Below are positions 10,122 to 56,964 of a stretch of 64,000 bases of DNA, piece by piece; position 1 is the first letter of the stretch, and each line of letters opens with the position of its first letter. This DNA comes from Eledone cirrhosa (lineage: Eukaryota): the NCBI GenBank assembly GCA_964016885.1, contig OZ024761.1, positions 14,818,001-14,882,000 of the forward strand. The letters are read 5' to 3'. A program made the position numbers and the translations under genes. Below the pieces are notes generated by a model that did no database searches, had not been told where the DNA came from, and was given only the letters and a program-made list of their open reading frames with translations.

Positions 10122-10332
10122 AATGTTAATTCAAAATATTAACAAAATAGATATTTTTGTGATCAATTATGTTTTATTATAACCATCTACTATGTCAGGG
10201 TATGTCATGCATCATCTTATTTTATCTGATGAGGACGTACTGTTGAACTTAACTCAGTACCTCTGAAATATGTATAATAAAATATACTTGATCACAAGAA
10301 TATCTATTTTGTTAATATTTTGAATTAACATT
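10122..10332. mobile_element. Foldback element (~60-bp inverted arms), Penelope-like
   Basis: Arms 10122-10181 and 10273-10332 with 3 mismatches; hammerhead in the spacer. Confidence 0.75.
10218..10284 (+). ncRNA. Type I hammerhead ribozyme candidate
   Basis: TATTTTAT-CTGATGA-GGAcGTACTG(12 nt)CAGTACcTCT-GAAA-TATGTA-TA-ATAAAATA: 8-bp stem I, intact core, 9-bp stem II, quasi-palindromic stem III, AUA site. Confidence 0.8.
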
Positions 10333-16091: not shown

Positions 16092-16427
16092 CATCATCAT
16101 CATTTTACGTCCGCTTTTCCCTGCTTGCAAGGGTTGGACGGGAACTGATTCTGGCTTGATTTCTACAGCTGGATACCCTTCCTAACACCAACCTCATTTA
16201 CAGTGAGTGCTGGGTGCTTTTTTTTTCCGTGGCACCTCCACGACCACTTTGCAGTGGAATGATAGGGACCCCAGTCCCTATCATCTCATTTCTACAGCTG
16301 AGTAAACTGGAGCAATGTGAAATAAAGTGTCTTGCTCAAGGAAACAACACATCACCCTGTCTGAGAATTGAACTCACAACCTTTCGATTGCAAGCCCAAT
16401 GCTCTAACCACTAAGCCATGCGCCTCC
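16092..16427 (-). mobile_element. SINE family A, full length
   Basis: Reverse complement of 777-1122. Confidence 0.9.
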
Positions 16428-25117: not shown

Positions 25118-25181
<64 letters not shown>

Positions 25182-25209
25182 AACAAAAGATGGTTAAAAG
25201 AGTTCCATG

Positions 25210-25280
25210 TATTTTATTATGCGCATTTCAAAAACAAATATCATCATGCAATAATATTTGTGTTTTCATCAGATAAAATA
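25210..25280 (-). ncRNA. Type I hammerhead ribozyme candidate (mirror copy)
   Basis: Reverse complement of 25350-25420. Confidence 0.8.
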
Positions 25281-25349
25281 GGAAGACATGATATGAAGGT
25301 TAAAAAACACTTGTGGATAGTGTTTTTTAACCTTCATATCATGTCTTTC

Positions 25350-25420
25350 TATTTTATCTGATGAAAACACAAATATTATTGCATGATGATATTTGTTTTT
25401 GAAATGCGCATAATAAAATA
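25350..25420 (+). ncRNA. Type I hammerhead ribozyme candidate
   Basis: TATTTTAT-CTGATGA-AAAcACAAATAT(12 nt)ATATTTGTtTTT-GAAA-TGCGCA-TA-ATAAAATA; stem III is the perfect palindrome ATGCGCAT. Confidence 0.8.
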
Positions 25421-25608
25421 CATGGAACTCTTTTAACCATCTTTTGTTCTTATATATTATGTATACTCCAGTCCTACAAACTGTAGAGTGCTTCTTATCC
25501 GATATCTGCATTACTTTATTGTACTACAATAAAACTCACCTCCTACATTATATATATATATATATAATAGTAATAAACAAAAGATATATACTTTATATCA
25601 TCTCTATT

Positions 25609-53433: not shown

Positions 53434-53806
53434 TCATCATCATCATTACATTTTACGTCCGCTTTTTTCCTGCTTGCAAGGGTGGGACGGGAACTGATTC
53501 TGGCTTGATTTCTACAGCTGGATGCCCTTCCTAACACCAACCTCATTGCTTTTTTGCCGTGGCACCTACACGTCCACTTTACAGTGAGTGCTGGGTGCTT
53601 TTTTGCCGTGGTACCTCCACGACCACTTCGCAGTGGAATGCTAGGAAACCCAGTCCCTATCATCTCATTTCTACAGCTGAGTAAACTGGAGCAATATGAA
53701 ATAAAGTGTCTTGCTCAAGGAAACAACACATCACCCGGTCTGAGAATTGAACTCACAACCTTTCGATTGCAAGGCCAATGCTCTAACCACTAAGCCATGT
53801 GCCTCC
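53434..53806 (-). mobile_element. SINE family A with an extra internal subrepeat
   Basis: Reverse complement of 777-1122 with duplicated GCTTTTTTGCCGTGG.ACCT unit. Confidence 0.9.
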
Positions 53807-54237
53807 TGCATATATAGATAGATACATATATATGTGTTGTGTGTATGTTTGTGTATAGAACAAAGAAAAAAATGACAGAAGTCAGAGGTAGGTAGTTAAT
53901 TAGTTCATTGCTTTACAATCGTTTCAGAGGATTGATTGATTGTGAAAGATCAATGTATTGACTAGCATGCTAGTGGTTAGGTTACTAGCCATTTCTAGTC
54001 TCGCTATTTCTAGTTTCAAAATTCCTGTTCGATATGTGTTTGTGTGTATATATATATGTATGTATGTATATATATAAATATGGAAGTGTGGTAAGGAACC
54101 AGGTGGACCATAATGCACCAGAGTTCTCAATACTATGGGTAGTAGAGTGGGTAATAGGAAAATAGTCAGGACCCCGACAGCTGAGCTCCGGTCGTTTCGA
54201 CAGCTAGTTCTGAACCAACGCAGTATTGTTATATATA

Positions 54238-54304
<67 letters not shown>

Positions 54305-54310
<6 letters not shown>

Positions 54311-54497
54311 TCTACGTTAGGCACAAGGCCAGCAAATCACCCAGTGTATTACTGGTACTTTATTTTATCGACCCCGTAAGGATGAAAGGCAAAGTTAACC
54401 TCGGCGGGATTTGAACTCAGAATGGAATGGCAAGGGCCGTAACTCCATGTGTCAAAGCATGGCGTCCGACCCTCTACCAATACTGCCAATCCACCGA
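54305..54497 (-). mobile_element. SINE family B
   Basis: Intact core ATCGACCCCGTAAGGATGAAAGGCAAAGTTAACCTCGGCGGGATTTGAACTC. Confidence 0.9.
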
Positions 54498-54669
54498 TAT
54501 AATATAATAAAGAGAGATAAACACAGATATATACACATATGTGTCCAAATCATAAGGGACCTAATTCGCTAGGGTCAATAAGATACTAACTATGAACAAT
54601 ACGGTTTGCCAGACTCAATTAAAAGAATAAATAAAGAAATAGTACAAACCGAATCGTGATAACTATCAA

Positions 54670-54747
54670 ACATCCAGACAGTCTTTGGTAAAACTGTTTC
54701 GCAACAAGTGAAGGGAATTGCCAATTCTGTTGCTCTTCAGTGGATGT
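54670..54747 (-). ncRNA. Canonical type I hammerhead ribozyme (GUC cleavage site)
   Basis: Minus strand ACATCCA-CTGAAGA-GCAACA(21 nt)TGTTGC-GAAA-CAGTTTT(ACCA)AAGACTG-TC-TGGATGT: 7-bp stem I, 6-bp stem II with G10.1-C11.1, 8-bp stem III, all core nucleotides present. Confidence 0.9.
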
Positions 54748-54891
54748 ACGAATTAGTAAACTTTTCACTTCTAGGTTTCTAGAAGATTAAATGAGGCGCG
54801 TGTTTCGAATAACACACATGGCATTCAGTGCCTAGCATGTCTCGTAAAAGGTATGCTGCTATTATATATTATACAGCTATTATATATTATA

Positions 54892-55082
54892 GGGCGGTGG
54901 ATTGACAGTATCGGTAGGGGGTCGGACGCTATGCTTTCCAGCATAGTTACGTCCCGTTACGATCTGAGTTCAAATCCTGCCGAGGTTGACTTTGCCTTTC
55001 ATCCTTACGGGGTCGATAAAATAAAGTACCAGTAATGAACTGGGTAATTGCTGGCCTTGTGCCTAAAGTAAAAACAATTATA
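54892..55082 (+). mobile_element. SINE family B
   Basis: Head, B-box, core and tail; TATATTAT flanks. Confidence 0.9.
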
Positions 55083-55167
55083 TATTATACGGCTCGGAAA
55101 ATTTTTTCCTTCAGCTATTTTAATTGTAAGGGACTATTCTGAGTTTCTAACTCAATACATACTTTTG

Positions 55168-55198
<31 letters not shown>

Positions 55199-55399
55199 AG
55201 AAAAACCACAGATCCTCCATCTCAACTCTACTTTTGAAAAGCAGAAGAACTGCGAAATGGGTAAAGGAACCAAATAAATATTTATATATTTTTTTAAAAA
55301 TAAGACTCCAGTTGCATTTTCGATTTCATCTCTTTTTCTTCATACTTTCACTCGTGTAGGACACTTCGGTTATTTTTCATTTTGTAAAAAAAACCTCAC

Positions 55400-55470
<71 letters not shown>

Positions 55471-55602: not shown

Positions 55603-55641
55603 TATTGAAGTTTGCTTGAAACATTGTGGAATAATAAATAA

Positions 55642-56231
55642 ATATCTTTAAGTCGTTTGGAAGCCTCGACAATGCAAATGGGTAAATCTCCGAGTAACAA
55701 GATCCGGTGGTGGAGAGAGAGATGTAAGTGGGTGTATGTTGAGATGCATGGCGTGTAAAGATGTGTAAATGTGTAGAAGAAAGAAGGGAAGAGTATAAAG
55801 GATAAAATAAATATAACAACACAAGAGAGAGTTACCATGGGAGAGATTTAATAGTCCCTATATATTTCGGATTCACATCCATCAACTGGGGTTTTTTTCC
55901 GGGGTAAAGGTTGTCTGTTGGACAGGTGCGAAACGCGTCCTCCGCTGTTTGTTGTTTCGCACCTGTCCGACAGACAACCTTTACCCCGGAAAAAAACCCC
56001 AGTTGATGGATGTGAATCCGAAATATATAGGGACTATTAAATCTCTCCCAAGGTAACTCTCTCTCGTGTTGTTATTTCTATTTTCCTTTATACTCTTTCC
56101 TTCATTCTTCCACACATCTGATACACGCCACGCATCTCAACGTACACCCACTTACATCTCTCTCTCCACCACCGGATCTTGTTACCCGGAGATTTACTCA
56201 TTTGCATTGTCGAGGCTTCCAAACGACTTAA

Positions 56232-56237
<6 letters not shown>
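55642..56237. mobile_element. ~600-bp foldback element (~290-bp arms, 19-nt loop), Penelope-like
   Basis: Arms 55642-55934 / 55954-56237; (TA)n on both sides; decayed hammerhead-like motif at 55997-56032 and GAAACGCGTC at the apex. Confidence 0.85.
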
Positions 56238-56274
<37 letters not shown>

Positions 56275-56349: not shown

Positions 56350-56690
56350 TATCATCATCATTTCATTTTACGTCCGCTTTTTCCTTGCTTGCAAGGGTGG
56401 GACGGGAACTGATACTGGCTTGATTTCTACAGCTGGATGCCCTTCTTAACACCAACCTCATTTACAGTGAGTGCTGGGTGCTTTTTTTGCCGTGGCACCT
56501 ACACGACCACTTTGCAGTGGAATGATAAGGACCTCAGTCCCTAGCATCTCATTTCTACAGCTGAGTAAACTGGAGCAATGTGAAATAAAGTGTCTTGCTC
56601 AAGGAAACAACGCACCACCCGGTCTGAGAATTGAACTCACAACCTTTCGATTGCAAGGCCAATGCTCTAACCACTAAGCCATGTGCCTCC
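56350..56690 (-). mobile_element. SINE family A, full length
   Basis: Reverse complement of 777-1122. Confidence 0.9.
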
Positions 56691-56964
56691 ATTATATATA
56701 TATATATATATTCACGGATCTCTACTCTGAGTTTGATCTTTTAGCCAAGTTATTTATTGTTATGTGTGTGTGTGTGTGTGTTTGACTTTGGCTTCTCCAC
56801 TTAGTCGCTGTTAGTCTTTCAATAACAGTTACTAGACAAAAGTACCATTACTACATCTAGCCTCAATAACTTCCCAAAATACTGCTTCATAATGTCCCTT
56901 TCTCTCTCTCTCTCTAAGAATGTATTCTAAAGTGCCCTGCTACTCTCTTTTTGTCTGTGTGTAT

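Follow-up and report, generated by a model that had tools for sequence, protein, structure and literature searches.

On the minus strand of the window, by which we mean the whole 64,000-nt stretch of Eledone cirrhosa DNA analysed here, lies a hammerhead ribozyme with three paired stems and an intact core. Its presence raises the question of whether it is a solitary, active motif or one representative of something larger. The motif taken alone is ordinary, as type I hammerheads in animal repeats are well known. It belongs to a family of at least hundreds of copies, likely spread by Penelope-like (PLE) retrotransposon machinery. The reading we favour, to which we give somewhat better than even chances, is that the family is a PLE-spread repeat of ~515 nt whose RNA is predicted to switch between the ribozyme and a leader hairpin that would likely keep unit circles uncut. 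A retrozyme-type repeat with PLE footprints is of a known kind; the covarying and, by prediction, self-blocking hairpin appears to be the new feature.

The hammerhead and its repeat family

The sequence-only reading had described stems of 7, 6 and 8 bp, an exact core and a GUC triplet, and all of these were confirmed, identifying a type I hammerhead (Table 1). The core conforms to CUGANGA and is accompanied by the GAAA strand and a UH cleavage site, and the three helices, with stem I open, are backed by covariation. Folded without the upstream leader, the minimum free energy (MFE) and centroid structures are both the hammerhead (z -2.89, 2 of 200 shuffles equally good), and the hammerhead persists when the leader is included (z -3.34, 0 of 200 shuffles as good). 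The active fold is the one predicted for the window copy, with a stem II pair probability of 0.96. A descriptor of the core plus three stems is matched four times over both strands of the window and not at all in 60 block shuffles. Rfam hammerhead models gave no match at the gathering score in the whole window and none at E ≤ 10 in 54300-55100, which likely reflects a failure of detection rather than of structure, caused by the long loop II together with stem III. Judged from the predicted folds, the window copy would likely cleave in vitro.

Stem III had been read as a stable hairpin that makes a dimer unnecessary, a view supported across the family, in which stem III measures 5-8 bp and carries a non-palindromic loop. 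The absent or short palindromic helix III of minimal PLE hammerheads, which need a dimer, is not found here. The description of the motif as fully canonical is correct for the core and stems of this copy but does not extend to its relatives: the 6-bp stem II is copy-specific, depending on two substitutions, of which one is absent from all 29 close paralogues and the other is present in a single one, whereas stem II of the family has 3-4 bp. A tertiary contact had also been suggested for the small hairpin within loop II. This hairpin is marginal, with only 2 bp in the MFE structure, and the main predicted partner of loop II is instead the 5' leader.

Table 1. Positions of the ribozyme, the repeat and adjoining elements in the window
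Feature	Positions	Strand	Remarks
Type I hammerhead, stems I/II/III	54670-54747	-	predicted cut between 54677 and 54676
Stem I	54741-54747 x 54670-54676	-	7 bp
Core CUGAAGA	54734-54740	-	C3 = 54740
Stem II of the window copy	54728-54733 x 54701-54706	-	6 bp
Loop II, 21 nt	54707-54727	-	marginal hairpin 54715-54727 plus strand complementary to 5' leader
GAAA strand	54697-54700	-	
Stem III	54690-54697 x 54678-54685	-	8 bp including one G-U, loop ACCA
Cleavage triplet GUC	C17 opposite 54677	-	predicted cut 3' of that C
5' leader, anti-hammerhead strand, about -33 to -9	54750-54770	-	complementary to loop II
Small 3' hairpin after stem I, 3 bp + AGUU loop	54658-54667	-	
Main arm of the repeat, 5'-truncated, about -122 to +241 of the core	54501-54861	-	3' end class A
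Inverted arm, about +240 to +335	55081-55167	+	3' end of class B, located on (TA)n
(TA)n microsatellite beyond the insertion's left end	54229-54304	.	
(TA)n microsatellite at the insertion's right end	55168-55195	.	
SINE at the element's 3' end	54305-54496	-	later insertion likely
Second SINE copy inside the inverted arm	54893-55080	+	11-nt AT-rich flanking duplication, likely target-site duplication
Family A autonomous PLE 3' piece, neighbour not part of the unit	55194-55361	+	worn U3-A8 minimal-hammerhead-like motif 55226-55271

The hammerhead is not a lone motif, as the window copy is one worn, 5'-truncated member of a large repeat family. A 336-nt query from the window gave 1,234 first-look candidates in the 3.0-Gb genome and, among the 40 of these that were scored, 39 besides the window itself match at 84-91%. 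The core pattern has 418 exact matches in the genome against 0 for the reversed control, a lower bound as worn cores escape an exact pattern. The repeat unit is ~515 nt long, non-coding, 32-34% GC and dispersed, and three natural dimers give 517-519 nt from cut site to cut site. A short non-coding unit with one type I hammerhead corresponds to a non-LTR retrozyme.

We mapped 87 loci (L001-L060 and L065-L094, minus three duplicates) onto natural reference copies. Two same-strand hammerheads ~507-519 nt apart, some with worn cores, are present in 5 of the 87, the dimers having come from a search with a natural dimer that favours long copies, and the head-to-tail junctions between units are seamless. 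Arrays of at least three units were not seen in the mapped loci, with flanks of about 1.5 kb, and in the window copy the main and inverted arms together amount to less than one unit. One further locus (L061), with two same-strand hammerheads 2.7 kb apart, was considered as a full-length PLE and rejected, no RT or endonuclease frame being present between them. Assembled contigs of three runs from one sample, the kind of run being unrecorded, contain the family and at 54704, 54720 and 54729 mostly show its usual letters; they have no bearing on expression or on the window copy. No paper describing this ~515-nt family was found in the literature, one of the searches having covered the best 20 of 4,965 matches.

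In 90 distinct copies, hammerhead pairs are kept in 94% of cells, compared with 21-42% in slid controls, and the 74 double-change cells are matched in 0 of 500 shuffles. These double changes amount to three events at the level of subfamilies, affecting stems I and III, which a flank-only tree of 78 rows placed on supported branches, with bootstrap values that are not fully settled. The small AGUU hairpin that follows stem I keeps all three pairs in 45 of the 55 copies where the motif was found and occurs in three main compensatory versions (22, 10 and 9 copies). When copies were chosen by overall similarity and not by core, the core is intact in 34 of 59, the intact core with 13 pairs is retained in 18 of these 59, and within the core only position 7 varies freely (U 25, A 23, C 11). 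Departures per site in the same 59 copies are 4.3-4.8% in the core and 3.7-5.2% in the stems. For the flanks the figure is 6-8.5%, in which subfamily differences are included. Neutrally decaying paralogues had been named beforehand as evidence against the ribozyme, and they are half of what is observed: single copies decay, but subfamilies show compensatory changes. Together, these two patterns suggest that selection acts on source RNAs and not on inserted copies, which would decay roughly neutrally, perhaps under slight constraint.

A leader complementary to loop II

Upstream of stem I is a leader of ~20 nt, on which the sequence-only reading did not remark and which is complementary to nearly all of loop II. 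Duplex energies, calculated for 91 copies after 7 of 98 were dropped for a truncated leader or deleted loop, average -16.4 kcal/mol compared with -7.0 +/- 2.6 kcal/mol for shuffled loops, and values of -12 kcal/mol or lower are reached by 74 of the 91 copies but by 4.3% of shuffles. The resulting 18-pair leader helix is paired in 84.5% of cells, slid controls giving 34-51%, and contains 62 double-change cells, a number equalled in 0 of 500 shuffles. These double changes occur in subfamilies F4 and F6, which the flank-only tree places on separate branches with support of 97/98 and 100/94; of the 153 subfamily-by-pair states, 134 are paired. The number of pairs carrying double changes, six, is not above chance (454 of 500 shuffles as high), so that covariation of the leader helix depends on few events, and the register of the helix in F6 is alignment-dependent. 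In a swap test, leader-loop pairs from the same subfamily were not more stable than cross-subfamily pairs.

Folding of the copies suggests which of the two structures would prevail. The hammerhead is dominant in 3 of 98 copies when the leader is present and in 11 of 98 when it is absent, and at least eight leader-loop pairs form in 60 of the 98 folded with the leader. An intact core together with the full set of 11 key pairs is found in 37 copies, in which imposing the hammerhead carries a median cost of 6.6 kcal/mol with the leader and 3.0 kcal/mol without it; the cost is zero in 5 of these 37, the window copy among them. Three natural monomers, covering 3 of the 5 dimers, were folded as circles; the leader hairpin forms in them, and their z scores are -6.7, -4.0 and -2.8 against 25 shuffles each. 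All of these values come from ViennaRNA, which ignores pseudoknots and tertiary contacts. They point to the leader hairpin as the predicted ground state in most copies and in circular monomers, and in most copies it would likely keep the ribozyme switched off.

At 16 of 341 sites, the letter of the window copy differs from the column majority. Four such departures (-22, +11, +20 and +36), common to 2, 0, 0 and 1 of 29 paralogues, respectively, lengthen stem II or weaken the hairpin, and it is to these private changes in the switch region that the copy owes its canonical appearance. Leader pairing is accordingly weakened in the window copy, and the distal half of the leader (54764-54770) could alternatively form a pseudoknot.

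As a separate observation, six loci that are the longest of their subfamily (L065, L066, L067, L068, L073 and L075) begin between -43 and +4 of the first core. These starts coincide with the leader hairpin, where reverse transcription may be halted or diverted, although they are partly set by the extent of the query.

Insertion footprints and neighbouring elements

The ends of the mapped loci are strongly patterned. In 80 of the 87, the 3' end falls into one of two classes (52 and 28 loci) about 90 nt apart; a microsatellite follows 54, and an inverted arm abuts the 5' end of 54. The 5' ends are variable, with only one of the 87 near the cleavage site, and some end assignments are blurred by TA-rich matches. 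More than one unit is present in 58 of 87 loci, a figure inflated by best-hit selection; in a sample of 27 loci selected on nothing but the core pattern, 13 are longer than one monomer and 18 are inverted. Copies are mostly 1-1.5-mers, the longest arms reaching about 1.5-1.9 units. In the window insertion, each arm ends at or near (TA)n. Passages of PMC8557442 describe PLE insertions as inverted and partial-tandem, with tails, and those of PMC11167929 describe an anole element with two internal RT starts that extends both strands and enters AT-rich targets. The partial tandems, inverted 5'-truncated arms, fixed 3' ends and microsatellite targets observed here match these accounts of PLE-mobilised elements. 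It is these insertion footprints that point to a PLE mobiliser.

Within this anatomy, the copy in the window is probably truncated and dead, its private changes favouring the active fold by coincidence. A truncated single copy of this kind could not make a circle and would likely at most cut a passing minus-strand transcript.

Two divergent SINEs had been noted on either side of the ribozyme. Both are present, 85% alike over 192 nt, but are incidental and likely later insertions. The copy at 54305-54496 we take to be tRNA-type from a box-B-like motif. Within the window this SINE has 18 matches; a copy abuts the element at just 6 of the 87 loci, for which reason a SINE composite element was rejected. 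SINE-driven transcription of the ribozyme was also rejected, as both SINEs face away from it. We speculate that the inverted SINE pair, if read through, could form a long RNA duplex around the ribozyme and possibly an editing substrate. A weak Rfam tRNA match (31 bits) at 16361-16418 on the minus strand marks the head of another abundant SINE family, which also occurs at 53436-53827 and 56351-56711. No host gene or exon was recognised in the window, reading frames being judged by eye.

PLE-type families with a GIY-YIG domain are abundant in the genome, each family search returning 21,426 to 59,125 first-look matches, and two families have open frames of at least 775 aa. The unit itself contains no RT plus GIY-YIG reading frame, and at 80 endonuclease loci from three families (30 + 20 + 30) no homology to the unit was found beyond nested unit copies. 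Family A, matched in the window at 55194-55405 on the plus strand, is abundant, has a CxxxxCxxC linker that is Neptune-like by the account in PMC8557442 and has frames of about 775 aa elsewhere; in its window motif, the palindromic helix III is worn. Family B (L125-L144) is young, with 94-100% amino-acid identity among the best 150 matches and frames of up to 1,257 aa. In 18 of 20 loci, a short hammerhead belonging to the family itself lies about 250 nt beyond the stop codon, and the family has two 3' ends about 60 nt apart, located on (TA)n in the four loci inspected.

Other hammerhead motifs are present in the window. A near-perfect head-to-head inverted repeat between (TA)n tracts occupies 25180-25450, with cores at 25358 (plus) and 25272 (minus), and both arms carry a PLE-type hammerhead motif with a long stem II and a palindromic helix III, the dimer-dependent kind. 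A further PLE-type hammerhead motif, with a CUGAUGA core and a near-palindromic helix III, is located at 10215-10290 on the plus strand inside a local inverted duplication. A second head-to-head inverted repeat, at 55634-56245, has arms 95-96% alike and ends on (TA)n; its family has 2,338 candidates, the best copies at 94-97%, and it contains a hammerhead-like, non-canonical motif at 56000 (plus) and 55888 (minus).

Competing readings and significance

The family shares with metazoan non-LTR retrozymes (Cervera and de la Pena 2020, PMC7229834; Li, Clavereau and Pollet 2026), as passages of these sources describe them, an AT-rich non-coding unit with one type I hammerhead, head-to-tail dimers, dispersed monomers, a predicted circle that is highly self-paired and the presence of PLEs in the same genome. 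It differs from them in consisting mostly of 1-1.5-mers with PLE-type inverted arms, in circles that are predicted only, and in a stem III of 5-8 bp with a loop II of 21-30 nt. Passages of PMC7229834 predict a free hammerhead for most metazoan retrozyme circles, apart from some in mussels, whereas the ribozyme here is predicted to be blocked by self-pairing. Blocking by complementary sequence in the circular RNA is a feature of plant LTR retrozymes and hammerhead viroids (PMC7229834 and PMC12029980, each in part), here a predicted one. Plant LTR retrozymes have type III hammerheads in LTRs, a PBS and PPT and Gypsy-type mobilisation, in contrast to the type I motif and PLE-type ends of this family.

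Resemblance to the PLEs Neptune, Nematis and Poseidon, as portrayed in passages of PMC4209133, PMC8557442 and PMC11167929, lies in partial-tandem and inverted insertions, AT-rich or microsatellite targets and two 3' ends (the 'tail'), and the hammerhead lies about 250-330 nt before the 3' end, as in PLEs and the local family B. Unlike PLEs, the unit has no ORF, its hammerhead is not minimal and lacks a palindromic helix III, its tail is ~90 nt compared with their 30-40, and it has no pLTR homology to three sampled autonomous families. A link between vertebrate retrozymes and PLE pLTRs has been drawn in bioRxiv 10.64898/2026.07.22.740005, in whose available text 1 of 9 dimers tested cleaved.

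Combined, these likenesses suggest a course of events in which each step is conditional. By analogy with the retrozyme literature, transcripts of dimer loci would be cut at both hammerheads during transcription, and the excised monomer would be ligated to a circle and then refold to the locked state. A PLE protein with RT and GIY-YIG domains would nick (TA)n and start copying at one of two internal sites, and copying may pass round the template for more than one full turn, on occasion starting from both strands. The weak palindromic helix III of most animal hammerheads is thought, in passages of PMC4209133, to permit cutting of multimers and not of monomer circles. As stem III is stable here, this dimer-dependence is absent, and the leader hairpin would replace it as the guard. 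A doubtful but possible extension of this scheme is that the leader strand first assists as a pseudoknot during transcription and then locks the ligated circle that is copied by the PLE RT.

The footprints are also compatible with a non-autonomous PLE repeat that forms no circles, in which the hairpin would keep linear tandem transcripts uncut and the ribozyme would fire upon refolding by protein. Anole Poseidon uses mainly unprocessed RNA and its hammerhead cuts only with protein, according to passages of PMC11167929, and both the scarcity of 5' ends at the cleavage site (1 of 87) and the limit of about 1.5-1.9 units on the longest arms agree with this account. Nevertheless, tandems would be expected to shorten through progressive 5' truncation if no circle or template jump renewed their length, and copies longer than one monomer span the subfamilies; monomers are predicted to fold as stable circles, and the full stem III differs from the anole motif. 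We therefore judge this alternative rather unlikely. The leader could instead be an activator, only its distal half pairing with loop II so as to align stems I and II, the long hairpin being a by-product of nested folding. Pseudoknots are predicted between stems I and II in about 40% of hammerheads, such contacts strongly raising rates, and pseudoknot-stabilised hammerheads similarly have a loop II complementary to sequence flanking stem I (Perreault et al. 2011, PMC3088659, in part). Several double changes fall in the distal half, and in some folds the proximal leader is able to extend stem I. Known pseudoknots of this type, however, measure about 4-6 bp and activate, whereas the helix here has about 18-20 bp, too long beside stem II and, on geometric grounds, incompatible with it. 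The proximal half is paired in 84-99% of cells per pair and has a double change of its own (UA 68, AU 15). An exclusively activating leader is thus decidedly unlikely, while one strand could serve both states, which is compatible with the switch we favour.

Three further explanations were weighed. An old inversion in the founder element could have left the complementarity behind as a neutral relic, which would accord with the frequency of inverted duplications (54 of 87), the negative swap test and the few independent compensatory events. This explanation is made quite improbable by double changes on separate branches, by the 134 paired states of 153 and by the retention of pairing despite indel divergence of the flanks and of the length of loop II. 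The PLE end structure could equally mark the copies as 3' tails of an autonomous PLE, each made afresh; long arms, conversely, continue into another copy of the unit and not into a reading frame, and no same-strand RT/EN match ends less than 1 kb upstream in 87 loci, the closest being at 1072 nt, which leaves this explanation with very little probability. Retention of the window copy by the host as an active regulatory ribozyme is just as hard to credit. All four switch-region changes favour the active fold, yet chance would place about this share of the 16 departures in a region that takes up 80 of the 341 sites, and an active fold is in any case predicted for 5 of 37 intact copies. A reader would naturally single out the copy of most canonical appearance, and inspection of the window by eye revealed no recognisable host exon.

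Several points also weigh against the switch between ribozyme and leader hairpin. The leader precedes the ribozyme, which leaves the route to the active fold unexplained, and the modelled median penalty of 3.0 kcal/mol persists even without the leader. The unit of ~515 nt exceeds the 150-450 nt given in passages of PMC7229834, and classic retrozymes often occur in longer arrays, none of at least three units being present in the loci mapped here.

The family combines retrozyme anatomy with PLE insertion footprints and constitutes a short switch with natural variants, predicted-locked copies and the unlocked window copy. Passages of PMC7229834 leave open how animal circles avoid cutting themselves and which elements mobilise them, and the sequence test of PLE origin in the 2026 preprint, in its available part, concerns Xenopus only. 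If the extended scheme holds, in which the leader first assists and later locks, the family would provide a covariation-backed, metazoan case of viroid-style self-blocking, and its footprints would tie retrozyme circles directly to PLE machinery.
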